DNA of 64,000 bases from Chloroflexota bacterium (GTDB taxonomy: Bacteria; Chloroflexota; UBA4733). A model generated the notes under the pieces. It searched no databases, was not told where the DNA came from, and saw only the letters and a program-made list of their open reading frames with translations. Both the position numbers and the translations under genes were made by a program. This document shows, piece after piece, positions 9,945 through 55,296 of the stretch. The DNA lies in assembly GCA_036734945.1 (NCBI GenBank), contig DAIMXP010000023.1, positions 1-64,000 on the forward strand, given 5' to 3'. Numbering within the stretch: the stretch's first letter is position 1; each line of letters begins with the position of its first letter.

Positions 9945-10320
9945 CTGCTGCTCCTGTCCTCCAGTGCGCCGGCTCTTCGCCCCGATACGGTTTCGGCCCG
10001 CGACTGCGGTCGCGGGTAGGCTTATCTAAACTGTATTGCTCTTCGCCTTTCCAGCATATGCTACTCTGCCGGACGGCGGCGCGCATCTTGACATTCCCGG
10101 CTACAGGACTGACCAGGGTCCGCCCGCGCTTTCTTACCCTGCCCGTGCGATCGCGGCGGGCGTTCCATCACGATGGCAACAGGAGCCGTGGCAGCTTTTG
10201 GCAGTTTGGCGGCGCACTTTGATAGCTGCCGTACCGGACGCTTCACACGAACGGCGAGCGGTATAGGTGCGGAGCGATAACGGATCACCCGCACCTTGAT
10301 GATCTCAGGAGGTGACACGG

Positions 10321-27586: not shown

Positions 27587-29127
27587 GTGGCAGACCTCCA
27601 AGCGGTCGGGATCGACCTCGGCACAACCTACTCGTCGGTAGCGATCGTCGATGCCCAGGGCAACGTCCAGCTTATCCCTAACGCCGAGTCCGAACGGTTG
27701 ACGCCGTCGGCTGTCTACTTCGATGACGACTCCATCGTGGTGGGTCAGATTGCCAAGGATAAGGCGGCCAGCGACCCCGATCGGGCGGTGCTCTTTGTCA
27801 AACGCCAGATGGGCAGCCTCCATTGGCTCTTCGGCCACGAGGACCAGCGCTACTCCCCAACCGATGTCTCCGCCATCATCCTGGCAAAGCTCAAGCGGGA
27901 CGCCGAACAGTACCTCAATCGTCCCCTTCCCTACGCCGTCATCACGTGCCTGCCTATTTCGATGACGACCGGCGACGGGCCACCATTGCGGCCGGGGAGC
28001 TAGCGGGCTTCAAGGTGCTTGATCTGGTCAACGAGCCAACCGCTGCGGCGGTCGCCTTCGGCGTGGAACGCAGCACACAGGACGAGACGGTGCTGGTCTA
28101 CGACCTCGGAGGGGGGACGTTCGACGTCACGCTCATGCATGTGGCGGGCAAGCAGATTCGGATCATCGGGACGGATGGAGATCATCAGCTCGGCGGTAAA
28201 GATTTCGACGACGCCATAATGGTGTACGCCGTTGAGGCCTTTCAACGCGAACACGGCTTCGATCCGTCCATTGACCCCTTTGTGGCGGCGGAGTTGCGCG
28301 GTCAAGCTGAACGAGCCAAACGGGAACTGAGCAAGCTGACCAAGGCATCCCTGGCTGTGCGCGCTCAAGGCAAAAGTACGCGCGCTGTGCTTTCCCGCGA
28401 ACAGTTCGAGGCGCTGATCAAGCCAAAGCTGGATACGACACTGGCGCTGGTACGCACGGTCATCACGGAGGCGAAAGTAGCACCCGGACAGGTGGACCGT
28501 GTGCTTCTCATCGGCGGCTCGACGCGCGTGCCGGCGGTGGCCCAGGCACTGGAGCGCTACTTCGGCAAGGCTCCCGATGCTTCCGTGAACCCGGATGAGG
28601 CAGTGGCGCTGGGAGCCGCGCTCATGGCCGCGCGGAAAATGGTCGACGCAGCCCCGTTGGAGGCGCCCCCGAAGGTGATCGAGAAGGTGGGTGGACTGGA
28701 AGTCACCGACGTCTCCGCGCACAGCCTCGGCATCGAAGCCTTCGTTCCCGGCACCAGTCAGCGCCTCAATAGCATCCTGATCCCCCGGAACAGCCCGATC
28801 CCCACGGAAGTCTCGCGCGAGTTCGTGACCGCCCTTCCCGGTCAGACCGCGATCAAGGTCACGATCTATCAAGGTGAATTTCCAGACCCCAACCTCTGTA
28901 ACCCCATCGGGGAGTTCACGCTCACGGGTCTGCCAGCGAACCGTTCGGCAGGACAGAAGGTAAGGGTGACGGTTTCCTGCGGAACCAGCGGTGTGGTGAA
29001 CGTGACTGCACTCGACATCGCCACGGGTCACCAGACTGCCACCGAGGTGAGTTACCGTGGCGACAAGGGTGGCGAAGCCAAGAAGAGCGCCCGAGACCGC
29101 TGGAAGACGGCGAAGCCGATCGTCTGA
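27587..29127 (+). pseudogene. Hsp70-family protein lacking the C-terminal lid, interrupted by a -1 frameshift near 27946
   Basis: N-terminus AVGIDLGTTYSSVAIV. The frame switches after AVIT (expected AVITVPAYF; the sequence atcac|gtgcct lacks 1 nt). The downstream frame reads VPAYFDDDRRRATIAAGELAGFKVLDLVNEPTAAAVAFG. Confidence 0.7.
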
Positions 29128-29193: not shown

Positions 29194-30456
29194 ATGCCGA
29201 ACAATCGCCACCTGGTGAACGACTTCGATATCCTCCGGCCGACGCAACTCCTCGAACGTGGCCTGCCCCTGCCGGGGTTGGACGGCCGTCACATTGTGGA
29301 ACATGGCTGGTGCTGCATCATCACCATCGACGGCGTCTACCAGGAGACGCTGGGGCCAGGTAAACACCACCTCGGTCGCTACCCCTTCTTCGGCAACGTC
29401 AAGGCCACCGCCGTCGATACGCGCATCAAGACGCTCACAATCTCTACCACCCGCGAGTTCACCATCGAGAAGCCCGTGCCGGTAGAGATCAACCTGGATC
29501 TGGCCGTCGAGTATCAGGTGAAGGATGCCCGCCGCGTCGTCCTCGAAGTCGGCCAACCGCTCACCGGACTGTACGACCGGGTGATTCAGGCAGTGCGCGG
29601 CGCCGTCGTCTTTGCGACCGTGGAAGACATCCGCCGTCAGGGTGAGACGATCGCCCAGATGACGCTGCAACGCCTGCAAGCAATGCAGCTCCCAAAGATT
29701 CTCGGCATTGAGGTCTTCACGATACTCGTCAACTCAATCAAGGCGACGGACGCCGGGAACGATGCGCTGGCCGCCCGCCAGATGGAGGAGTACACGCGGG
29801 TGCGCGACTGGCAACTCGATTCGCAAATGCTGTCCCAGTCGCAGATGACGCCGGAGTGGATGCTCATGCATCGACCGGAAGTGTACGCCCAGATGATGGC
29901 CGGCAACCAGGCCCTCATGAAGGAGTTGATCGAACGAGGCATGCTTGACCCGGCCGCCGTTCTGAGCCGACCGGTCGGCGCTACGTACGTTGATCCGCAG
30001 TCTATGCTGGCTGCCTTGACGGGCGGCGCGGCCTCGGCGTTCGGCGGCGTCCCGAGTCTTGGGTCCGGCATCCCCGCGACACACGGCTCTCCGCAGTTGC
30101 CCGAAGCCTTGCCGGGCAGTAGCCAGGCCGCGGCAGGAGGCGACATCATGGCGCGAATGCGCGAGGATATCCGCTACCTCCAGGCGCTGCCGGGAGTGGT
30201 GGTAGAGACCAAGCCCGGCATTGACGACCTCGGCGTGCCCGACGGCTCCTACGACGTGCAGGTGCAACTGCCGCGCAGCTCGGGCGGACGTCTCCAACTG
30301 TACGTGATGTGCCCACGGGGCTACCCACAGCAACCGCCGACCGTCGAACTGGACCTGGACGATCAGCCCACCCCCTTCCAGTCGGCCATCCTGCGGCGCT
30401 GGACCGGGCAGTATCTCGTGGAGATCGCCCGCGAAGCCAAGCAATACTGGGGGTGA
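29194..30456 (+). CDS. SPFH/band-7-like domain protein with a C-terminal E2/RWD/UEV-like (YPxxPP) module
   Basis: SPFH-like block YQETLGPGKHHLGRYPFFGNVKATAVDTRIKTLTISTT...GIEVFTILVNSIKATD. The C-terminus LQLYVMCPRGYPQQPPTVEL resembles the UBC/RWD YPxxPP signature. Confidence 0.5.
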   Translation: MPNNRHLVNDFDILRPTQLLERGLPLPGLDGRHIVEHGWCCIITIDGVYQETLGPGKHHLGRYPFFGNVKATAVDTRIKTLTISTTREFTIEKPVPVEINLDLAVEYQVKDARRVVLEVGQPLTGLYDRVIQAVRGAVVFATVEDIRRQGETIAQMTLQRLQAMQLPKILGIEVFTILVNSIKATDAGNDALAARQMEEYTRVRDWQLDSQMLSQSQMTPEWMLMHRPEVYAQMMAGNQALMKELIERGMLDPAAVLSRPVGATYVDPQSMLAALTGGAASAFGGVPSLGSGIPATHGSPQLPEALPGSSQAAAGGDIMARMREDIRYLQALPGVVVETKPGIDDLGVPDGSYDVQVQLPRSSGGRLQLYVMCPRGYPQQPPTVELDLDDQPTPFQSAILRRWTGQYLVEIAREAKQYWG

Positions 30457-30465
30457 GGGGACAGC

Positions 30466-31203
30466 GTGTCTGACTTCTACCGCGCCCTTCGGGTGATGCC
30501 CTCCGCCACACCGGAGCAGATCGCCAGCGCCTACGCGCGCGAACGCACGCGTGTGGAGACGCCCGGGGACACGCCGGAAACGTCAGTAGCGGCGCGCCTG
30601 ACGGCGATTGAGGAAGCGTACGTCGTGCTCGGTGACCCTGAGCGCCGCGCTGCCTACGATCGGTCGTTGGGCAGTACTCGCGCGCGCGCCTCAACCGTGA
30701 CCGTGCAGGCGCTCGTCGATGCCGAGCCAGAAGCAGGACCTTCCCCGTCGGCGGCCCCACTCGCAACCATCACTCCGTCGACGCCATCGTCGACTGCAGC
30801 CTCACTGAACGCATCCACTATCAACCTCGACTTGCTGTCTCCAGCGCCGACCGTGCGAGCCTGCCCGAATTGCGGCAATTCCAACCCGGTACAGGCGACC
30901 ATCTGCTCGTCCTGTGGCGGGCAGATGACCCGGCCTTGCCCCTATTGCGGCCAGCCGGTGGCCCTCAGCGAAGCCGTCTGCCCACGCTGCCACACCGTTG
31001 TCACGGAGTATGACCAGCGCCGTTTCGCCGTGGCGGTGCAAGGGGACCACCAGGTGCAAGAAGAGCGACGGGATCTCTCGGCCGGGGTGGAGGCACTGGA
31101 GGCTTCCAATGCCCAACGCAACCAGAACGCGCTCATCTTCTGGCTGGTGGCGCTGGCCCTTTTTGTTGGCGTCATCATCTTCCTGGTAAGCCAGGTCCAT
31201 TGA
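30466..31203 (+). CDS. J-domain-like (no HPD) double zinc-ribbon protein with a C-terminal transmembrane anchor
   Basis: FYRALRV...IASAY...LGDPERRAAYDRS is a J-fold with TPGDTP where HPD is expected. Zinc ribbons CPNCG...CSSCG and CPYCG...CPRCH. Terminal hydrophobic helix. Confidence 0.5.
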   Translation: MSDFYRALRVMPSATPEQIASAYARERTRVETPGDTPETSVAARLTAIEEAYVVLGDPERRAAYDRSLGSTRARASTVTVQALVDAEPEAGPSPSAAPLATITPSTPSSTAASLNASTINLDLLSPAPTVRACPNCGNSNPVQATICSSCGGQMTRPCPYCGQPVALSEAVCPRCHTVVTEYDQRRFAVAVQGDHQVQEERRDLSAGVEALEASNAQRNQNALIFWLVALALFVGVIIFLVSQVH

Positions 31204-31940
31204 ATGCTGCAATGACCATGGCAACGCTGCCTCCCGAGACCACCCCGGAGCAGGGTCTGATCTGCAGCAACTGCCACGCGCTCAACTCCGCCGGCGCCAG
31301 CGTCTGCACTGCCTGCGGCGTGCGCCTGGTCAACCTGCCGGACGCCGTTGTTCGGCTACAGGAGATCGAACGGCAAGAGGCGGCCGCGCATGCCGCCATC
31401 CTCCAGGCCAGGACGGCAACACGCATTGACGGCGAGTGGCGGCGAAGCGTGCGCGGACTGCGCCGCCAGATGGTCTGGCTCCTCGCGGCTGCGCTCGTCG
31501 CTGCTGCTGCTGGGCTAGGGGTCATGCGCTTCCACCAACATCAACTCGCCGTTCAGGCTCAACACCTGGCGAGCGACTACGCCGCGGGGATGCTGTGCCT
31601 GAGCGATACCAACTTCCTCTGTGCCCGCGACGACTTCCAGGCGTTGCTGCTGGAGTCCCCAGGCTATCGCGACGCGGCCGACAAACTGCGCGAGGCGCGC
31701 TATGGTCTGGCGCGCCAATACGCGGCGGGCGGCCAATGGCAAAAGGCGCTGGATGAGCTGAACGCTGTGCTCAATCAGAAGCCGGGCGATGCGCAAGCGC
31801 TGACCCAGGAGCACGATGTCTACAACCGCTGGATTGCCGATGTGTCGGGCCACGGCGACTACTTGCAAGCGCTGCGCCTGATTCTGCAGCGCGACGCCCG
31901 TTTTCCTCCCGGCCAGCCGGATATCTACAGGGAGACGTGA
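31200..31940 (+). CDS. Zinc-ribbon / TM / TPR-like repeat protein
   Basis: CSNCHALN...CTACG ribbon, one TM helix and a C-terminal helical repeat region. It overlaps the previous gene by 4 nt. Confidence 0.45.
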   Translation: MNAAMTMATLPPETTPEQGLICSNCHALNSAGASVCTACGVRLVNLPDAVVRLQEIERQEAAAHAAILQARTATRIDGEWRRSVRGLRRQMVWLLAAALVAAAAGLGVMRFHQHQLAVQAQHLASDYAAGMLCLSDTNFLCARDDFQALLLESPGYRDAADKLREARYGLARQYAAGGQWQKALDELNAVLNQKPGDAQALTQEHDVYNRWIADVSGHGDYLQALRLILQRDARFPPGQPDIYRET

Positions 31941-31999
31941 AGGTGGGGGCGCCGCCACAACGGGCGCTGTGATTTTGTCCTCAATAGAAAGGAAGAGCA

Positions 32000-32944
32000 A
32001 TGGCAACCTATTACGAGACCTTGCAAGTGCAGCCGACGGCAACGCCTGCCGAGGTCGATGACGCCTGTAACACGCTGTACAACAAGTGGCGGCGGCTGGT
32101 GACGCACCACGACCCGAGCGTGGTAAACCAGGCCAATCAGGCGTTGCAGCAGGTGGATGCGATCCGCTCCACGCTGAGTGACCCGGTCCGGCGCTCCGCC
32201 TATGACGAGGGCATCGGGTTGAATGGGGCGATTGGCGGGCTGGCGGACCCAGAGGCGGTGCTACGGGCAATGCCGGTCGTGACGATGGCGCCGCCCTCTC
32301 CGCCGCCCCCTCGACCATTGGCTGGTCCACCTGCGCAGGTAGCCGCCAGTCGGCCGGGGCTGTGGGCGTGCCCCAAGAAGGGGTGCGGCGCCGAAAACCC
32401 TCCCAATACGAAGTTCTGCTTCAAGTGTGGGACGCAGTTGGTGCAAGAGTGCCCCGAGTGTAAGAAAATGTCATCGCTGATCTCGACGAGTTTCTGCGGG
32501 GAGTGCGGTTACCGCTACAGCATAGCTAGCGAGCGGGCTGCGACGTTAGCGGCTTGGCTGGAACTACAGCAGAATGTCGAGCGGCAAAATGGGGAACTGG
32601 GAATGCTTCAGGAACAGCGCAACCACATGAAGTATGGTGGGCACATCTTCTGGATGATCGTGTTCGGGTTGGGAGCACTTGGAGTATTTTTAGGGGCGCA
32701 CTCTGACTATGAAAAGGGAGGTGCTGTGGGTGTGAGTGTGAGTGTGAGTGTGAGTGTCGTCCTCGGTGCCTTCTTGGTGGGGATTGTCGTCCTTATTGGA
32801 GTGGGGTACAGCAGCAAGCAGAAGGAGAAGGCGAAGGCTGACGCCGCCATCGTCGCCAAGCGCAGCGAGATTGAGCGAACGACTCAGATGATGGCCGGCT
32901 CGGCTCAGGTGTATCAGCAGCTTGGACAGCGCAAAGCGGGGTGA
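32000..32944 (+). CDS. J-domain-like (HHD variant) zinc-ribbon membrane protein
   Basis: YYETLQV...LVTHHDPSVVNQANQ...LSDPVRRSAYDEG. Ribbons CPKKGCG...CFKCG and CPECK...CGECG. Coiled-coil and 2 TM helices with a VS repeat encoded by (GTGAGT)n. Confidence 0.5.
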   Translation: MATYYETLQVQPTATPAEVDDACNTLYNKWRRLVTHHDPSVVNQANQALQQVDAIRSTLSDPVRRSAYDEGIGLNGAIGGLADPEAVLRAMPVVTMAPPSPPPPRPLAGPPAQVAASRPGLWACPKKGCGAENPPNTKFCFKCGTQLVQECPECKKMSSLISTSFCGECGYRYSIASERAATLAAWLELQQNVERQNGELGMLQEQRNHMKYGGHIFWMIVFGLGALGVFLGAHSDYEKGGAVGVSVSVSVSVVLGAFLVGIVVLIGVGYSSKQKEKAKADAAIVAKRSEIERTTQMMAGSAQVYQQLGQRKAG

Positions 32945-33005: not shown

Positions 33006-33500
33006 CAGGGCCGCGATTGCGGGCCCAGAGGGCGCCCCCGGCCAAGTTACCGGGGCGACTGCGGTCGCTTGGGTGGGGGAGGACGGTTGGGGGCAAGGGA
33101 CGTTCGATGGGTTGGGAACAGGGCCGCGATTGCGATCGGCGGCCAAGGACGGAGGGCGACTGCGGTCGCTTGGGTGGGGACCGACGGTTGGAAAAGGCGA
33201 AAGATTGGTTCATCTTGAACAGGGCCGCGATTGCGATCGACGGCCAAGTGACGAGGGCGACTGCGGTCGCTTGGGTGGGGACCGACGGTTGCATATTCAC
33301 AGCGCCTCGGCCCCTGCTCCCCTTCACCATTCCTTGCCTCCCGCAACCGTCCTTACCCTGTCAAGCGACCGCAGTCGCCCCCGTCACTTGGCCGCCGATC
33401 GCAATCGCGGCCCTGTACTCCCCCACCCACCTTCCCGCAGCCTCCCCCAACCGCACTCCCCCGGCCAAGCGACCGCAGTCGCCGCCCTGCGATCTCCCTA
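33006..33500. repeat. Family-B REP/BIME-like cluster with three direct and two inverted copies of a roughly 50-75 bp unit (GGGCCGCGATTGCGATCGGCGGCCAAGTGACGGGGGCGACTGCGGTCGCTTGG)
   Basis: Units were read directly from the sequence. Each holds two hairpins (GGCCGC..GCGGCC and GCGAC-TGCG-GTCGC). The same unit recurs at 37.8 and 55.2 kb. Confidence 0.7.
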
Positions 33501-33549: not shown

Positions 33550-36546
33550 ATGCAGTTCCCCTATATCTTCCTTTCCAGCCGTGAATTCGTCCAGGAGGCT
33601 GTCGACTTCGACAACAATCATGGTGTGACCTACCGGGAGGTCGGCGGCGAGCATGCCATCTGGGCGGCGCGGGTGCCGTTCGTCCCAGCGATGATGTCGG
33701 AGGACTTCACGCGCCTTGGCCGGGAACGCATCCGGCTCATCATGGAGCGCCAGTTCCATTTCATCTACGACCTCGCCCGGCTGCGGGAGCATCGCGCTAC
33801 CTTTGAGCTCCGCTTCATCGCCACGCCCAATCCGGTCCCCGGCCAACCCAACCTGATCGACATGGTCTTCCTCGGCAAGGTCTTCGCGACGCGCTTCCGG
33901 GGCGGCCAGCCGCTGGCGGAACGGCTCTGGGAGAAGTTCCAGGCGACGTTTCCGGTGGAGGACCCCTTCAACTATCCGCTGGAGCCGGTGACCAACGAGG
34001 CGGAGTTTCGGAGTTACCTGGAGCCGATCCCTACCGCCAACCTCACGGCGGACTGTCTGCTCGAAATCCGCAAGTATGAAGACATGCCGATTCGCAGCAC
34101 GGCAGCGCTTGGCCGCCTGGAGCGAACCGGTGACTATGTCGCCCACCCCTTCGTCCCCTGCGTCGACTTCAACCCCATGGGCCGCTTCCTGGCGGCGCTC
34201 GCCCGCGAACCGCAACGCTGCCTGGTGGGTATCAGTCTGCGGCCTGTACGCATGTTCGACCAGGAAATCTTCAATGTCAGCTATGCCATCGGCCAATTCA
34301 AGAAGACCATCGGCGACGACGCTGGCGTCACCGAGGAGTACATCCGCTCGCGGGCCGGCATCGGCACCTTCGTCTATCAACAGTTGATGCAGGAACGCGA
34401 GGGCCTGGTGCTGGTGCGCGTTCACCTGGTGGGCGAGGACCACGCGCCTTACGGCCTCGCCGGCGCGCTTGGCTCCGAGATGATGGGCAACGCCGAGAAC
34501 GTCTACCCGACGCAGTGGTCCGCCGCCCAGCCGGCCGACGAGCACGAATTCGCTACTGCCGTCGCCAACCTGCGCTTCTTGGAGCAGGCGCACTGGGGCC
34601 ACACGATTGCGCCCTTACCACTCCAGCGCCTCCGCTACTTTGCCACTGCGCGCGAAGCATATGGCGCGTTTCGGCTGCCTGTCCCTTCCGAGTCCGGCTA
34701 CCTCCCCGGCGTGCTGGTCAAGAGTGAACCATTCGTCGCGCCGGCTGACGAATTGGAACTGCGCGAGCAGGCCCGTGCCAACCGCAACGATGCGCTCGCA
34801 GCCTCCACCGAGCAGGCCCGCAACCGCAAGGTCGGCCTTGGCGTAGTCTACCACCGCGGTTCAGCCACCGCGCAGGCATTCCGACTCAATGTGCGCGACC
34901 TCACCCGCCACGCGCTCATCGCCGGCTCCACCGGCAGCGGCAAGAGCACGACCGTCAAGCACATTCTGGTGCAGCTCTGGCTGGAGCACCGTGTCCCCTT
35001 CCTGGTCCTGTACCCGGTCGATAAGCCCGACTACCGCGAGCTGCGCGGCTTCCCGGCACTGGCCGACGAGTTACTCGTGTTCACGTTGGGTGACGAGAGC
35101 ACGTCGCCCTTCCGCTTCAACCCTTTTGAGGTACCGGATGGCCTGCTGCTCAAGACGCACCTCTCTCGCCTCATGCGAGTCTTCACCGCTGCCTTCAGCC
35201 TCCAGGATCCTCTGCCCATGATCTATCGAGAGGCGCTTCGCCAGGTCTATCGGGAGAAGGGCTGGGACATTGTCCTGGAACGCGGCGAATCGAGCCGCGA
35301 CTATCCGACCATGGCGGAGTTCTATGCGGCGATCAAACGCATTGCCGACGGGCTGGAGTACGGCCGCGAGGTCAAGGATACCGTTCGCCAGGCCTCCGTC
35401 ATCCGCATTGGCGATTTGCTGGAGAATGCCGGCCACGTCGTCAACGTGCGCCGATCTATGCCGCTCGGCAAAATTCTGAACCAGCCCACGATCATGGAGT
35501 TGGGCCGCGTCGGCTCCGCCCAGGACACCGCGCTGCTGATGGGCTTCCTGTTGATGCGCTTCACCGAGGAAGTGGAGCGTCACCCGCGTCACGCCGAGCA
35601 CCCGCACATCACCGTGATCGAGGAGGCTCACCGTCTGATGGCGGAGACGGGGCCACGCTCCGAGTCGGGCGGTGACACGCGCGGCGCGGCCGGCGAGGAC
35701 TTTGCCAATATCCTGGCGGAGGTGCGCGGCTTCGGTGAGGGCATCATCATCGCTGAGCAGATTCCCACGTTACTGGTCAAAGGCGCCATCGGCAACACCT
35801 ATCTGAAAATCATGCACTGGCTGGAGGACGCGCCGAGCTTTGAGTCCTTCGCCGACATGATGAACCTCAACGCGGAGCAACGGGAGTACGCCCGCACCCT
35901 CACGCCCGGCTTCGCCCTCCTGCGTAATCCCTACGGTCGCCCGGTCCACGTCAAGGTACCGGAGTTCGGCGATCAGCCGGGCTACTGCCGCGAGGCCCTG
36001 CCCGACAGCTCCGACGCGAGCATTCGCGCCTTTATGGAGACGCAGCGGCAGAAGCTGGCGCTGGGCGACGTACCGGTTGACCCGTGGGATATCAGTCTCA
36101 GCGCCGGTGGGTCTGCCGCCGGGGCCACTCAGGCGGGGGCGGAGCTGCTGCAGTTGCTCGTGGCGGCGCCTATGGCAACCTGCGCCTACTGTGCCCCGTT
36201 ACACGCCACGAAGCGCTGCCGCTATGCCGGGGCGGTGCGCCGCCGTCTGCTCAGCGACTCCGCCTTCGATCAGGCCCGGCAGGAGGAGCTGCGTTCCGTG
36301 CTGGCACAGGAACAGCAATCAGACCTCTGGTTGGAAACGCGCGGCTGGGGCGCCCGCGTAGAAGAGCGGGTACGATCGGTCACGCCGGCCGACCGACGCG
36401 GCATCGTCTACTGCTACCTGGCGCACTCTGCCGACAGTATGGCGCGGGGAGCATCGGCGAAGGCGGAGGGGACAACGCCCGAGGTTCGCCGCGCCCGCGG
36501 CCTGCTCCAGCAATTTGAAGCAGAATACCCAAAGCCGGAAGGATGA
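33550..36546 (+). CDS. HerA/FtsK-type P-loop ATPase (DUF87-like) with a large uncharacterised N-terminal domain and a Cys-rich C-terminal region
   Basis: 998 aa. Walker A LIAGSTGSGKSTTV at about residue 450. Walker B HITVIEEAHRL (hhhhDEAH, characteristic of HerA/VirB4/FtsK). C-terminal CAYCAPLH..KRC. Confidence 0.6.
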   Translation: MQFPYIFLSSREFVQEAVDFDNNHGVTYREVGGEHAIWAARVPFVPAMMSEDFTRLGRERIRLIMERQFHFIYDLARLREHRATFELRFIATPNPVPGQPNLIDMVFLGKVFATRFRGGQPLAERLWEKFQATFPVEDPFNYPLEPVTNEAEFRSYLEPIPTANLTADCLLEIRKYEDMPIRSTAALGRLERTGDYVAHPFVPCVDFNPMGRFLAALAREPQRCLVGISLRPVRMFDQEIFNVSYAIGQFKKTIGDDAGVTEEYIRSRAGIGTFVYQQLMQEREGLVLVRVHLVGEDHAPYGLAGALGSEMMGNAENVYPTQWSAAQPADEHEFATAVANLRFLEQAHWGHTIAPLPLQRLRYFATAREAYGAFRLPVPSESGYLPGVLVKSEPFVAPADELELREQARANRNDALAASTEQARNRKVGLGVVYHRGSATAQAFRLNVRDLTRHALIAGSTGSGKSTTVKHILVQLWLEHRVPFLVLYPVDKPDYRELRGFPALADELLVFTLGDESTSPFRFNPFEVPDGLLLKTHLSRLMRVFTAAFSLQDPLPMIYREALRQVYREKGWDIVLERGESSRDYPTMAEFYAAIKRIADGLEYGREVKDTVRQASVIRIGDLLENAGHVVNVRRSMPLGKILNQPTIMELGRVGSAQDTALLMGFLLMRFTEEVERHPRHAEHPHITVIEEAHRLMAETGPRSESGGDTRGAAGEDFANILAEVRGFGEGIIIAEQIPTLLVKGAIGNTYLKIMHWLEDAPSFESFADMMNLNAEQREYARTLTPGFALLRNPYGRPVHVKVPEFGDQPGYCREALPDSSDASIRAFMETQRQKLALGDVPVDPWDISLSAGGSAAGATQAGAELLQLLVAAPMATCAYCAPLHATKRCRYAGAVRRRLLSDSAFDQARQEELRSVLAQEQQSDLWLETRGWGARVEERVRSVTPADRRGIVYCYLAHSADSMARGASAKAEGTTPEVRRARGLLQQFEAEYPKPEG

Positions 36547-36553
36547 CCGCACA

Positions 36554-36841
36554 GTGAGCGACTTCACCTTCGACCCTGCGGCTGCCGACGCCATTGATGC
36601 AGCGGTAAACACCGCCTCACTCGACGTCAGCGGCCCGGCCCTGGAAGTACCGGAGGTGCAGGCCGACGCCGACGTGCCCGATGTCGTTCCGGCTGGCGAC
36701 GACACTACCCTCGCCACGATCCATCCGCCAGAACAGCCGGAGATCGAGCCCCACATGGAAAACGAGCCCGTCACCATCGAGACGGGCGGTAAGTCGCTGG
36801 AGCCGCCGGAAGGCTGGACTCCCCGTGGTCCCGAGGGGTGA
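36554..36841 (+). CDS. Small acidic hypothetical protein
   Basis: Asp/Glu/Pro-rich and abuts the ATPase gene. The start is uncertain (36515 ATG overlaps the previous CDS; 36554 GTG). Confidence 0.3.
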   Translation: MSDFTFDPAAADAIDAAVNTASLDVSGPALEVPEVQADADVPDVVPAGDDTTLATIHPPEQPEIEPHMENEPVTIETGGKSLEPPEGWTPRGPEG

Positions 36842-37458
36842 TAGCGATGGACGACATCGATGTCGCCGAGCCACCAACACCCGAAGTACTTGACGCACCG
36901 GCGACGGACGACGGCCAGGGAAGCCTGGATGGCTCTGTCGACTACACCATGGAGACGGATCTGCAGGTGCAGGATGCCACCGATGCGCTGCAGCAACTCG
37001 ACGGCATCTCCCCAGCTACCTGGCAAACGCTGGATGCCCAGGGCCGATTGGAGGCCCTGCAGAGCGTGGAGGACAGTATGGCGGCCGTGCAGGGTCGCCC
37101 GGGCTTGTCCGTTGAAGCGGAGGCCCTCGGCCCCGGTGTCTGCGGCGCCTACGACGGGTCGCGGCTCGTTGTGAACGCCGAGCAACTTGACAGTGCAACG
37201 CCTGTCGGTGAATTTGTGGACACTGTTGTTCACGAGGATCGCCACGCCTTCCAGGACTTCGCGGTGAGCCATCCCGGCACGGTGACCGATGGCACAGTGG
37301 TCGGGGCCTGGGCAGCGAATATGGAGCCTGGGCAGTACCTCAGTGCCGAAGACTACGGTCTAGAGGCCTACGCCGCCCAACCGATCGAAGCGGATGCCTG
37401 GGCCTATGCAGGCCGCATTGCCCAGGGCCTCGGGCTGCCCCGACTGGAGTCGGAATAG
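36838..37458 (+). CDS. Putative zincin-like metallopeptidase (HExxH) with an acidic N-terminus
   Basis: TVVHEDRHAFQD contains HEDRH (HExxH). Overlaps the upstream stop (GTGA). ATG at 36847 is an alternative start. Confidence 0.45.
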   Translation: MIAMDDIDVAEPPTPEVLDAPATDDGQGSLDGSVDYTMETDLQVQDATDALQQLDGISPATWQTLDAQGRLEALQSVEDSMAAVQGRPGLSVEAEALGPGVCGAYDGSRLVVNAEQLDSATPVGEFVDTVVHEDRHAFQDFAVSHPGTVTDGTVVGAWAANMEPGQYLSAEDYGLEAYAAQPIEADAWAYAGRIAQGLGLPRLESE

Positions 37459-37780
37459 GATGGAGATGGAACGCGATACTGTCGTGTCCCGACTGGTAGA
37501 GGAATTCGGCTATCCGCTTCACGGTGCATCGTTAGTAGCCGACAAGTTACTCGCGCTCTCACCACCAGTGCGCGAGGCCTTCATCTCGTGGTGGGACGGC
37601 GGACCCTTGCCCAGCCTCGAAATCTCGGGGGAAACCGTCCGCACCCTCATGGATCAGCACGGTCAACAGCCGATCGCCGCCTTCCTAACGCTCGACTGGC
37701 TCCAGCGCGACCCAGTCGCGGCGCGACGGGTACTACGAAAAGGTCACGATAGCGTCCGCTTCCCAGGACGCCACGTGTAG
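37459..37780 (+). CDS. Hypothetical small protein
   Basis: ATG immediately after the previous stop. 107 aa with no known motif. Confidence 0.3.
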
Positions 37781-37843: not shown

Positions 37844-37974
37844 CAGGGCCGCGATTGCGATCGGCGGCCAAGTGACGGGGGCGACTGCGGTCGCGTTGCG
37901 AACCGTCGACGGCGCATCCAAGCGACCGCAGTCGCCCCCGTCACTTGGCCGCCGATCGCAATCGCGGCCTTGTA
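37844..37974. repeat. Family-B REP-like palindromic element (unit + 27-bp spacer + inverted unit)
   Basis: Near-perfect inverted pair of CAGGGCCGCGATTGCGATCGGCGGCCAAGTGACGGGGGCGACTGCGGTCGC. Confidence 0.7.
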
Positions 37975-38062: not shown

Positions 38063-41000
38063 TCATTCGTTCGCCACCAGCAAGCCCCCCAACCCTGCTT
38101 CCGCCAGCGTGGCGTTGAACGGTGGCAGGTCGTCGCGCAGCAGCGCCTGGTACCGCTCGATTTGTGCCTGGCAGAGCTGCGTCAGGTGCTGGAACACCTC
38201 CTCATACTGACGCGGTGGGGCGGCGTCGGCGCTGTCGACCATGCTGGCGAGGATGGCCAGGCGGGCGTTGAGTCGGTTGAGGGGGCCGAGCGCGCTGGCG
38301 GCCTTCGGTTCGACCAGTTCCTGCTCGATGGCCGTCAAGCGCTCCACCAGGGTATCGCCGGCCTGCTGGATGCGGTCCGCTGCTGCGTTGCCTTTGCTGC
38401 GCCGTTGCCAGTCTTGCACCTGCTGGCGCAGGTCGCGCAGTTGGAGGACAGTGCGATGGACAGCGCTCAACTGCTCGTTTATACGGCCGTGCAGGTCGGC
38501 CAACGCCTGCAGGTCCTGCTCGCTCGCCGCGATACGCGGGTCCTTCAACACGGTATATTGGGCAGTCTGGACGAGTTCGCCGGCGCGCAGTTGCACCTGG
38601 TACTCGCCAGGGGGCACGAGCGGTCCTTTCAGCAGCTTCTCGGTGGCGGCATCGCCGGGCAAGGCTACGGCATCGGCGCGCCGCAGGTTCCAGACGAAGC
38701 GGTTCACGCCAACCTTGGTGGGAAGAGTAGGCGCACCGTCACCCTTGGTGGCCCCTTCCTTCTTGGCAGTGCCGGACTCAGACGTGTCGCCTTCACTGGA
38801 ATAGGAGCGGAGCTCAGTGCCGGCGCTATCCAGAACGGTGAGTGTGAGCGGCTGGGTCGGCGATTCGCTCAGCAGGTAGGTGACGACGACGCCATCCTTG
38901 GGGTTCTCCCCGGCATCAACGAGGTCCTCCACCTGCTCGCCCTGCTGGTTGCGATGGCGGCGCAGCGGGACACGCAGCGGGCCGCTGTTGCGGAAGTCGT
39001 TGGCGGCAGTACCGTTCGCCTCCCGTCCGTAGTTGCGCAGGCGAAAGGTCGGCTTCGGCGTGAATAGGTGAGCCGGCTCGGCTGCCGCTGCCGGATCAAG
39101 CTGACGCAGTGGGGTGATGTCGTCCAGAATCCAGAAGGAACGGCCGTGCGTGGCGGCGACCAGTTCGTCCCCTTTGATCGCCAAATCGTAGACGGGCACG
39201 ACCGGCAGGTTGCCGCGCGCCGGACGCCATAAGGCTCCGTCGTCGAAGGAGACGTAGAGGCCAGTCTCCGTGCCGGCGACAAGCAGGCCGCGACGCACCG
39301 GGTCGGCGCGGATCACGCGCGTGAAAACGTTGGCAGGCAGACCTTGCACGATGCGCTGCCAACTCTGGCCGTAGTCGCTGGTCTTGTAGAGGTAGGGTCG
39401 GAAGTCGTCCAGCTTGTAGCGGGTGGCGGCGATGTAGGCGGCGCCGGCGTCATAGGGTGACGGTTCAATAACGCTGATCAGGGTCCATTCCGGCAGGTCC
39501 GGCGGCGTGATGTTGGTCCAGGTCTGGCCGTTGTCGCGGGAGAGGTGGACCAGACCGTCGTCCGTGCCTGCCCAGAACAGGCCTGCCTGGTGGGGCGACT
39601 CCACAAAGGCAAAGATGGTGCCGTAGAGTTCGGCTCCGGTGTTGTCGCGCGTGATCGGCCCGCCGGAGGGCAGCATCTTTTGCGGGTCGTTGCGAGAGAG
39701 GTCCGGGCTGATCTCCTCCCAGGTGGAACCGAGGTCGCTGGAGCGCAGCGCCTTGTTGGCGGTGACGTAGAGGACGTTCGGGTCGTGGGGCGAGAAGGAT
39801 ATGGGGAAGGTCCACTGGAAGCGGTACTTGAGGTCGGCGCCGCTGCTGCCCATGCCCATGACGTCGGGCCAGACGGTGATGTTGCGCTTCTGGCCGCTGC
39901 GATGGTCGTAGCAGATCAGCCGGCCATGGCCGGAGCCGCTGCCGATGGCGCCACCAACGATGATGTTCTGGTCATCCGGCTTGAGGGCGATATAGCCGCT
40001 TTCGCCACCGCCCGGCTCAAACCAATCAAGCTGGGTGATAGCGCCCGAACTGGTGCGGCTGGGCAACGACAACGCCGAGTTGTCTTGCTGCGAGCCGTAG
40101 ACACGGTAGGGGAACTGATCGTCGGTGGCGACGTGGTAGAACTGGCCGGTGGGCTGGTTGTAAACGGAGGACCAGGAGAGGCCGCCGTCAAAACTCACCG
40201 TCGCGCCACCATCGTGACCCAGGATAAGCCGCCGCGGGTTGGTTGGATCCATCCAGAGGTCGTGGTTGTCGCCGTGGGCCGTCGGCACGGCGCTGAAGGT
40301 GATCCCGCCGTCGATGGAGCGCCAGCAACCAACGTTGAGCACCCACACGGTATCGGCATCTTGCGGGTCGGCGTGGATGTGCATGTAGTACCAGGCGCGG
40401 CGGCGCAGATCATTCTCTTCGCACAGCCGCGTCCATGTAGCGCCACCATCATCGGAACGGAAGACAGCGCCATCTTCGGACTCCACGATGGCCCAGAGGC
40501 GGTCGCGCCGGGCCGGGGAGGCGGCGATGCCGATCTTGCCGCGCACGCCGGTGGGCAAGCCGGGGTTACTCGTCAACTCCTGCCAGGTGTCGCCGCCGTC
40601 GGTCGATTTGAAGAGCCCCGAGCCGGGCCCGCCGCTGGTCAAGCTCCAGGGGGTGCGCCGGACCTCCCAGAGCGCCGCGTAGAGCACGCGCGGGTTGTGG
40701 GGGTCGAGCACGAGGTCGCAGGCGCCGGTATCTTCGTTGCGGAACAGCATGCGCTGCCAATGCGCGCCGCCGTCTACGGAGCGAAAGATACCCCGCTCGC
40801 TATTCGGGCCGTTGGCGTGTCCCAGCGCGGCCACGTAGACGAGGTCCGGGTTCGTTGGGTGTACGCGGACCTTGGCAATGTGCCTGGTGTCTTCCAGTCC
40901 GACGTTGATCCAGGTGGCGCCGGCGTCGGTGCTGCGATAGACGCCGTCACCATGGGACACGTCGCCGCGGATGCAGGCTTCGCCGGCGCCGACGTAGAGC

Positions 41001-41305
41001 ACGTTGGGATCGGACGGCGCCACGGCAACCGCGCCGATGGCGGCAGTGTGCAGATAGCCGTCGGTGATGTTGCGCCAGGAGATACCGCCATCGACGGTCT
41101 TCCAGACGCCGCCGGCACAGGCGCCGTGGTAGAAGGTCAACGGCTCGGCCGGGTCGCCGGCCACCGCCACCACGCGCCCGGCCCGGTGCGGCCCGATCAG
41201 CCGCCAGCGCATGAGGCCGGCAAGGGTATCGTCCAACGGTGCTTCTTCACGTGTCGTCAATTGATCCCGCTCCCTCGCTATCAGGTCGGAGCATAGCACA
41301 GGCAC
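38063..41305 (-). CDS. BNR/Asp-box repeat protein (sortilin/VPS10- or GH74-like beta-propeller)
   Basis: At least 9 SxDxGxTW Asp-box motifs (STDAGATW, SVDGGAHW, STDGGDTW, SDDGGATW, SIDGGITF, SFDGGLSW, SRDNGQTW, TSDYGQSW, SFDDGALW). 1080 aa. Internal Met at 41212 is an alternative start. Confidence 0.65.
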   Translation of the reverse strand: MPVLCSDLIARERDQLTTREEAPLDDTLAGLMRWRLIGPHRAGRVVAVAGDPAEPLTFYHGACAGGVWKTVDGGISWRNITDGYLHTAAIGAVAVAPSDPNVLYVGAGEACIRGDVSHGDGVYRSTDAGATWINVGLEDTRHIAKVRVHPTNPDLVYVAALGHANGPNSERGIFRSVDGGAHWQRMLFRNEDTGACDLVLDPHNPRVLYAALWEVRRTPWSLTSGGPGSGLFKSTDGGDTWQELTSNPGLPTGVRGKIGIAASPARRDRLWAIVESEDGAVFRSDDGGATWTRLCEENDLRRRAWYYMHIHADPQDADTVWVLNVGCWRSIDGGITFSAVPTAHGDNHDLWMDPTNPRRLILGHDGGATVSFDGGLSWSSVYNQPTGQFYHVATDDQFPYRVYGSQQDNSALSLPSRTSSGAITQLDWFEPGGGESGYIALKPDDQNIIVGGAIGSGSGHGRLICYDHRSGQKRNITVWPDVMGMGSSGADLKYRFQWTFPISFSPHDPNVLYVTANKALRSSDLGSTWEEISPDLSRNDPQKMLPSGGPITRDNTGAELYGTIFAFVESPHQAGLFWAGTDDGLVHLSRDNGQTWTNITPPDLPEWTLISVIEPSPYDAGAAYIAATRYKLDDFRPYLYKTSDYGQSWQRIVQGLPANVFTRVIRADPVRRGLLVAGTETGLYVSFDDGALWRPARGNLPVVPVYDLAIKGDELVAATHGRSFWILDDITPLRQLDPAAAAEPAHLFTPKPTFRLRNYGREANGTAANDFRNSGPLRVPLRRHRNQQGEQVEDLVDAGENPKDGVVVTYLLSESPTQPLTLTVLDSAGTELRSYSSEGDTSESGTAKKEGATKGDGAPTLPTKVGVNRFVWNLRRADAVALPGDAATEKLLKGPLVPPGEYQVQLRAGELVQTAQYTVLKDPRIAASEQDLQALADLHGRINEQLSAVHRTVLQLRDLRQQVQDWQRRSKGNAAADRIQQAGDTLVERLTAIEQELVEPKAASALGPLNRLNARLAILASMVDSADAAPPRQYEEVFQHLTQLCQAQIERYQALLRDDLPPFNATLAEAGLGGLLVANE

Positions 41306-55173: not shown

Positions 55174-55296
55174 GGCCGCGACTGCGATCGGCGGCCAAGC
55201 TAACGGGGCGACTGCCGTCGCCTGCATCATCGGATGACACGGTGCGATGCGACGGCAGTCGCCCCGTTAGCTTGGCCGCCGATCGCAATCGCGGCC
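55174..55296. repeat. Family-B REP-like palindromic element (inverted pair), preceded by a conserved leader-like TGATGCAAAGCAGTGCGCAGCAAGCGAG that is also found before the 33.0-kb cluster
   Basis: GGCCGCGACTGCGATCGGCGGCCAAGCTAACGGGGCGACTGCCGTCGCC / inverse copy. Confidence 0.65.

Follow-up and report, generated by a model that had tools for sequence, protein, structure and literature searches.

Does a J-domain that lacks the His-Pro-Asp (HPD) triad still serve an Hsp70? A 2026 review of J-domain proteins (JDPs) notes that whether deviations from HPD are accidental or selected "remains enigmatic" and that only HPE is known as a tolerated form (PMC13254874). The question is raised by three consecutive open reading frames (ORFs) at 30466-32944 on the plus strand of contig DAIMXP010000023.1 of a Chloroflexota bacterium, of which a stretch of 64,000 nucleotides (the window) was analysed. 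An initial annotation described them as two paralogous, tail-anchored J-like proteins with degenerate HPD motifs, here called J1 (30466-31203) and J2 (32000-32944), flanking a zinc-ribbon/TPR membrane protein, here called X (31200-31940), and suggested that the J-like proteins are decoys or regulators of an adjacent lidless Hsp70. The three ORFs are as described. Comparison with related loci points, with a probability that we put at about 60%, to a dedicated, rewired and membrane-tethered Hsp70/J system that has J1, X and J2 as its membrane anchors. All genes and protein features described below lie on the plus strand unless another orientation is given.

Domain architecture of J1, J2 and X

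J1 (245 residues) and J2 (314 residues) are paralogous along their entire length, as had been proposed (BLASTP E=3e-19, 27% identity). The proposed check of their J-like character against the Pfam DnaJ model was run, and the model did not fail. Residues 3-65 of J1 matched PF00226 with 33.3 bits (E=5e-8), above the cut-off of 27.8 bits, and residues 3-69 of J2 with 26.8 bits (E=5.5e-6), 1 bit under it. The family profiles matched the J-domain of E. coli DnaJ (J1, E=1.9e-13) and that of DNAJB8 (J2, E=1.3e-8), and J1 alone matched DnaJ by BLASTP (E=7e-10). AlphaFold2 modeled four J-domain helices in each protein (residues 4-7, 16-31, 38-56, and 58-77 of J1; 4-8, 16-34, 39-60, and 62-72 of J2), with predicted local distance difference test scores of 86-98 within the two J-domains and of 94-98 in that of J2. 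When the models were compared with the PDB using Foldseek, the top 50 matches of J1 and the top 40 matches of J2 were all J-domains, and J2 superimposed on DnaJ in the DnaK-bound structure 5NRO_B with a target TM-score of 0.85 and a root-mean-square deviation of about 1.9 Å. The N-terminus of J2 (32000-32215) is a true J-domain, and J1 (J-domain at 30466-30666) is a genuine J-domain homologue without His-Pro-Asp.

Downstream of its J-domain, J1 consists of a disordered linker, a double zinc ribbon with four invariant CxxC pairs (30856-30993), and a long helix that ends in a predicted transmembrane segment (residues 223-241 of 245; 31132-31188). In J2 the J-domain is followed by a GGLADP motif (residues 79-84; 32234-32251), a Pro-rich linker, a double zinc ribbon (32363-32509), and a long helical hairpin (residues 173-233 and 244-309). 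Both double ribbons matched Pfam DZR with 35-36 bits. The two predicted transmembrane segments of J2 (residues 215-233, 32642-32698; residues 251-269, 32750-32806) sit at the tip of the hairpin, which would leave both ends of the protein in the cytoplasm, with a 45-residue cytoplasmic helix after the second segment.

X (246 residues; the start chosen by gene callers is 31212) is a bitopic protein consisting of an N-terminal cytoplasmic zinc ribbon (31263-31319), an Arg-rich helix, a central transmembrane helix (residues 91-109 of 246; 31470-31526), and a TPR-like C-terminal domain (31566-31907). The ribbon is single and scored below the Pfam threshold; CxxC zinc ribbons are present, as first noted, in all three proteins. 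In the orthologue alignment C22, C25, C36, and C39 are invariant, as are C133 and C141 of the TPR-like domain. Five Arg residues precede the membrane helix and, by the positive-inside rule, the TPR-like domain is probably extracytoplasmic. For X as a TPR protein the results were mixed: the Pfam TPR matches reached only about 19 bits, under their cut-offs, but a unit of about 40 residues (ARY.LA.QY...GQW..A..EL..L) is multiplied in the orthologues of loci L008 and L022. X also gave a weak Pfam anti-sigma match. A word-index search with X returned 2 relatives, and an apparently split X gene in assembly L001 proved to be a run of N, that is, a scaffold gap and no mutation.

Transmembrane helices are thus predicted in J1, X, and J2, and the placement of the module at the membrane stands. 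The C-terminal membrane helix first assigned to all three proteins, as a tail anchor in J1 and J2, was upheld by topology prediction in J1, which has a single membrane helix at its extreme C-terminus, but not in J2, with two such helices and a 45-residue tail, nor in X, where the helix is central.

A conserved HHD triad in J2 and a variable loop in J1

At the position of HPD, the loop between helices II and III carries H36-H37-D38 in J2 (codons at 32105-32113) and ETPGDTPE, without any His-Pro-Asp, in J1 (30556-30579), as initially read. Both motifs had been called degenerate, which fits J1 but not J2. In the J1 family, HPD was found in 0 of 36 clusters and in 0 of 17 locus copies, and the loop varies in both length and sequence; no other part of the J-domain is less conserved (entropy of 2.66 bits, against 1.65 for the whole domain), while the hydrophobic core residues of the J fold are retained across the family. 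Because it has no triad and so little conservation in the loop, J1 can be regarded as a Pam16-like pseudo-J protein; it keeps the J fold with HPD replaced non-conservatively, as pseudo- or type IV JDPs do. A separate observation concerns a predicted protein of 139 residues on a 10.7-kb JGI contig (P0108). Its first 33 residues are identical to residues 11-43 of J1 and the remainder matches a HEM4 (uroporphyrinogen-III synthase) domain; it is either an assembly chimera or the product of a rearrangement in a related strain.

J2 also lacks the canonical triad and formally fits the same class, yet its variant triad is conserved. HHD was present in 63 of the 72 clusters obtained by word-index search, in about 81 of 95 distinct copies from the fetched loci, and in 142 of 188 representatives at 50% identity. 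The rarer forms are HHN, HHE, HYD, HQD, and HPD (the last in 11 of 188), and the first His is almost invariant. Over the segment WRRLVTHHD (W30-D38), the most constrained stretch of the protein, column entropy averages 0.37 bits, compared with 1.15 over the J-domain. Such conservation across the family indicates that "degenerate" is the wrong word for J2: HHD is a family signature and not a product of decay.

The likely origin of the variant can be read from its relatives. Locus L053, with an identical gene order, carries four downstream J2 copies with canonical THPD, and HPD and HP-x forms lie near the base of a neighbour-joining tree of J2, which, built on 78 residues, is weak evidence. Because of this locus and the basal position of the HPD forms, HHD most likely arose from HPD inside an already established family and then became fixed.

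Conservation in J2 extends to the GGLADP motif, with L81 and D83 invariant and at least 95% conservation of G80 and P84; the motif might serve Hsp70 as a docking site or as a client-like segment. The J2 gene is amplified in tandem to 9 or at least 10 copies in some loci (L006, L017 with L021, and L018/L034). In the amplified copies the J-domain, GGLADP, and the zinc ribbons are conserved and the coiled-coil and membrane parts are divergent; some copies have an additional C-terminal zinc ribbon.

A lidless Hsp70 with an altered J-docking surface

The Hsp70 gene of the window (27587-29127) codes for a lidless, HscC-like protein made up of a nucleotide-binding domain, a linker, the beta part of the substrate-binding domain (SBD-beta), and a short, conserved tail of basic character. 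A deletion of 1 nt between 27946 and 27947 (ACG-GTG-CCT expected, ACG-TGC-CT found) interrupts the gene and yields ORFs of 138 and 393/434 residues, both pieces matching Pfam HSP70. The deletion is common to four assemblies from different data sets and assemblers that are 99.9-100% identical to the window. A programmed frameshift was ruled out, as there is no slippery heptamer at ATC-ACG/TGC and the orthologues are uninterrupted. Because the same deletion recurs in four assemblies without a slippery sequence, the gene has probably lost its function in this lineage; that no further lesion was seen suggests a recent event. With its Hsp70 frameshifted and a single J2 copy, the system of this particular genome may be inactive or decaying. 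The description of an adjacent lidless Hsp70 therefore needs qualification: the protein is lidless and genetically tied to the J genes, but a gene for an SPFH protein intervenes and the Hsp70 reading frame is broken here.

The repaired protein has 513 residues and is 62-73% identical to intact orthologues of 512 residues. All 13 orthologues measure 510-516 residues and end just past SBD-beta, without an alpha-lid, in whose place the basic tail SA[KR]xRW[KL]xxKP[IV][VL] is conserved in 13 of 13 (29083-29127 in the window). Alignment with DnaK and HscC revealed the indels listed for HscC in the review by Mayer (PMC8215388), namely deletion of DnaK residues 76-101, deletion of the D211 loop, and an insertion in loop L1,2 of SBD-beta. 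In overall similarity the protein is equidistant from DnaK (35.0% identity, 285 bits) and HscC (35.7%, 241 bits).

The catalytic residues K70, E171, T199, and D201 are invariant in the 13 orthologues, as is P419. The residues that read the J-domain are not. In DnaK, R167 and Q378 are the partners of Asp35 of the HPD triad, and E206, D211, E217, and D477 are those of J-domain residues R22, K26, R27, K48, and K51 (PMC8215388). In the cluster Hsp70s, R167 is replaced by D, E, or A (D in the window), Q378 by M, V, I, or F (M in the window), E206 by R, K, H, Q, or S, E217 by R, K, S, or T, and D477 by S, T, or A. On the J side, the equivalent of DnaJ K51 is D or E in 100% of the J1 and J2 sequences, K48 corresponds to Q in most J2 sequences and to Q, A, or R in those of J1, and the equivalent of R22 is acidic in 63% of J2 sequences under both alignments tried. 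The changes at K51 and K48, both in helix III, hold whichever alignment is used. With the docking residues of Hsp70 as well as K51 and K48 of the J-domain replaced, the alignments indicate that both faces of the canonical J/Hsp70 interface are altered.

A conserved gene cluster in Anaerolineae

The three genes are also a fixed part of a larger cluster that the initial annotation had not recognized and that includes an SPFH/RWD protein and a HerA/FtsK-type ATPase. In about 18 independent loci from metagenomes and metagenome-assembled genomes (MAGs), the conserved order is Hsp70, an optional J2, SPFH, J1, X, one or more J2 copies, and ATPase. Hsp70 was present in every locus with enough sequence: in 13 its gene precedes that of SPFH, and in L010 and L011 it comes after the ATPase gene; L006 was not assessable in this respect. 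X always lies between J1 and the J2 array. J2 is single in the window and in L029 and reaches at least 10 copies in L017 with L021. The named records are Anaerolineae/Chloroflexota MAGs, apart from one contig of 2.7 kb in a "Nitrosomonadales" bin that is probably mis-binned. No description of this gene combination was found in the literature. Judged by this shared gene order, a conserved Anaerolineae cluster is built around the lidless Hsp70, and the genes of J1, X, and J2 belong to its core.

A proposed dedicated Hsp70/J system and its alternatives

We favor a rewired cognate pair over a dead one because the Hsp70 residues that read HPD and helices II and III have themselves changed. In such a system, J2 would be a working co-chaperone that docks on, and probably activates, only the rewired Hsp70, and this exclusivity would insulate the system from the housekeeping DnaK/DnaJ. 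Through membrane hairpins that vary among them, the J2 paralogues may bring Hsp70 to different membrane sites or to different clients. J1 would be a non-stimulating pseudo-J protein that acts as partner or regulator of J2, as Pam16 does for Pam18, and X could link the complex to the outside via its TPR-like ectodomain. The Hsp70 itself would remodel or pull a membrane-associated assembly involving the SPFH scaffold and the ATPase.

Several points weigh against this proposal. Changes of HPD abolish ATPase stimulation in all canonical systems tested, with HPE as the only one known to be tolerated (PMC13254874). The helix II part of the interface comparison is ambiguous, because helix II of J2 is about 4 residues longer than that of DnaJ: the equivalents of K26/R27 are E24/x25 or R31/R32 of J2, depending on whether HMMER or MAFFT is used. 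A direct pairing of the second His of HHD with Asp167 of Hsp70 had to be rejected, since the HPD-type locus L053 also has E167, together with F378; the contigs of the other HPD-type relatives were too short for the same comparison. Finally, J1, X, J2, SPFH, and the ATPase are intact in this genome while Hsp70 is broken, and therefore either the loss is recent or the function of the partners is independent of Hsp70.

A further-reaching version of the proposal takes HHD as a functional alternative to HPD, matched to a lidless Hsp70 with a rebuilt J-docking surface, and the whole as an undescribed Chloroflexota membrane machine made up of the Hsp70, a pseudo-J, an array of diversified J2 adaptors, an SPFH/RWD scaffold, and a HerA/FtsK ATPase. 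The J proteins, diversified in tandem, would steer the force of the chaperone towards different targets in the membrane. We put this forward tentatively and consider it rather doubtful.

The opposite idea, close to that of the initial annotation, is that both J-like domains bind the cluster Hsp70 or DnaK without triggering hydrolysis and so sequester it at the membrane as decoys or inhibitors. Neither J1 nor J2 has HPD, replacement of which ends stimulation in every canonical system tested (PMC8215388, PMC13254874), the loop of J1 is unconstrained, as expected for a non-stimulating domain, and Pam16 offers a precedent. Yet the loop is the most conserved part of J2 and its sister clade carries HPD, which fits a functional contact of the catalytic type better than a dead one; canonical rules need not hold where the docking residues of Hsp70 have changed; and from 1 to at least 10 decoys without any activator, for an Hsp70 that is catalytically intact, would be an unparsimonious arrangement. 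As an account of the whole system we regard it as unlikely. The constraint on J2, the HPD of L053, and the rewired Hsp70 speak against two decayed decoys, while J1 taken alone does fit the notion of a J-like regulator, and it is mainly for J1 that a decoy role is possible.

Another explanation dispenses with the chaperone cycle. The HerA/FtsK-type ATPase would then power a machine, perhaps one for translocation or with an accessory or defence function, that has J1, X, and the diversified J2 proteins as its membrane subunits, its adaptors, or its substrates. The J fold would serve as a structural or oligomerisation module, and Hsp70 would be an auxiliary assembly factor. The broken Hsp70 beside intact partners agrees with this, as do the variation in J2 copy number (1 to at least 10) and the divergence of the membrane parts among copies, the integrase, PIN, IS21, or CHAT-TPR genes that adjoin some loci, and homologues of the ATPase on plasmids without Hsp70 or J genes. 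Against it, Hsp70 is syntenic in every assessable locus, and the constrained segment of J2 is the very one that contacts Hsp70 in canonical J-domains. Nor does a defence role find much in its favor: the PADLOC 2.0 defence models gave partial HerA/mad8 matches for the ATPase, chance-level matches for J2, and no match for J1, X, or SPFH; a phage collection searched with J2 returned no match; and the genomic context is not consistently that of a defence island. We consider this explanation improbable, slightly more so than the decoy model.

That the J-like genes are functionless, eroding leftovers of canonical DnaJ-type genes, as the lost HPD and the frameshifted neighbour might suggest, is very improbable, being contradicted by the family-wide conservation of full-length ORFs (at least 309 representatives at 50% identity with E<=1e-30), invariant Cys ligands, motifs, and gene order.

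Neighbouring genes and repeats in the window

In the window, the cluster forms an operon-like run in the order Hsp70, SPFH, J1, X, J2, a repeat-containing spacer of about 600 bp, the P-loop ATPase, and three small ORFs. The SPFH/Band-7 protein (29194-30456), for which no transmembrane helix was predicted and which thus appears soluble, has an SPFH domain at 29293-29799 (Band_7 E=7e-11; found in 12 of 12 orthologues) and an RWD-like domain at its C-terminus (30136-30453), the latter resting on weak RWD matches in 8 of 12 orthologues (best E=0.002). The protein is 48-59% identical between loci. Its RWD/UBC-like domain contains a C-P-x-G-Y-P-x-x-P-P motif and an invariant Cys373.

The HerA/FtsK-superfamily P-loop ATPase (998 residues; 33550-36546) matched DUF87/HerA and FtsK_SpoIIIE around residues 441-489. 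It is soluble, has an uncharacterised N-terminal region of about 420 residues, is 62-70% identical between loci, and always lies downstream of the J2 array. A homologue of 963 residues is encoded on the Priestia megaterium plasmid pN447-3.1 (L056; NZ_CP064271.1, 106849-113322), with 28% identity over 76% of the length, the N-terminal region included. It stands beside a gene for a 1135-residue protein without Pfam or PADLOC match, and no Hsp70 or J genes were found near it.

Two accessory genes follow the ATPase (36838-37780), coding for proteins of 206 residues (36838-37458) and about 106 residues (37460-37780). Both are found directly 3' of the ATPase in L008, L019, L022, L023, L025, and L041, though not in every locus. 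The 206-residue protein, with HE[GD]RHA[FY]QD and EADAW motifs and a faint match to the Pfam DUF6782 metallopeptidase family, is possibly a zinc metallopeptidase.

The spacer between J2 and the ATPase holds five REP-like repeat units of about 101 nt each (33015-33490, in both orientations), at the place where other loci have more J2 paralogues. Their palindromic core, GGCGACTGCGGTCGC, occurs in 10 copies against 0.04 expected, and further repeats of this kind lie at 37880-37936, about 9999-10013, and 55207-55263. Contigs of other assemblies break within the repeats of this spacer. Downstream of the cluster, a 1080-residue ORF on the minus strand (38063-41305) contains BNR/Asp-box and Sortilin-Vps10 repeats; it overlaps several plus-strand ORFs, which are probably spurious.

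Significance

With a constrained HHD, a sister group that carries HPD, an HPD-less paralogue in the same operon, and an Hsp70 with changed contacts, this family is a natural test case for the question of accidental or selected HPD deviations, one that can be tested directly with a few recombinant proteins. If J2 activates its Hsp70, the rules of J/Hsp70 recognition would be broader than assumed, and such pairs could be used as orthogonal chaperone modules. The linkage to the SPFH/RWD protein and the HerA/FtsK-type ATPase suggests a membrane process that has so far not been described.

Comparison with known systems

Type IV or pseudo-JDPs, such as DNAJB13 with HPL (PMC13254874), share with J1 and J2 a recognisable J-domain in which HPD is changed non-conservatively. 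Unlike in those proteins, the variant triad of J2 is conserved in a large prokaryotic family with an HPD-bearing sister group, and a co-localised Hsp70 dedicated to these proteins, its docking surface likewise altered, is part of the cluster.

A second parallel is Pam18/Pam16 (Tim14/Tim16), a J protein paired with a J-like one in the mitochondrial import motor; Pam16 lacks HPD (PMC13254874). Here too, a membrane-associated pair of paralogous J-fold proteins, one with a constrained loop and one a pseudo-J, goes with a dedicated Hsp70. However, there is no homology past the J fold, no translocon has been identified in the cluster, J2 has HHD instead of HPD, and a J1-J2 dimer is hypothetical.

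The greatest resemblance is to the E. coli hscC locus (ybeQ-ybeR-djlB-ybeT-ybeU-djlC-hscC). HscC works only with DjlB and DjlC, tail-anchored paralogues that bear HPE and flank a Sel1/TPR protein (PMC10410713), YbeT, which is encoded between them. In both cases a specialised Hsp70 with HscC-type indels is encoded near two paralogous membrane J proteins with a non-HPD triad that flank a TPR-like protein, and the J/Hsp70 pairing, exclusive for HscC, would be so in the cluster as well. The differences are nevertheless considerable. The lid of HscC is shortened (550-580 residues), whereas the cluster Hsp70 has no alpha-lid at all; R167 and Q378 are kept in HscC and replaced in the cluster Hsp70; and the HPE of DjlB/DjlC contrasts with HHD in J2 and no triad in J1. 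The cluster also adds zinc ribbons, the SPFH/RWD protein, the HerA/FtsK ATPase, and tandem amplification of J2. Orthology of J1 and J2 with DjlB and DjlC was considered and rejected, as BLASTP found no match to the DjlB/DjlC J-domains. The cluster and the E. coli hscC system are thus analogous, not orthologous, and the hscC locus is the closest known arrangement.

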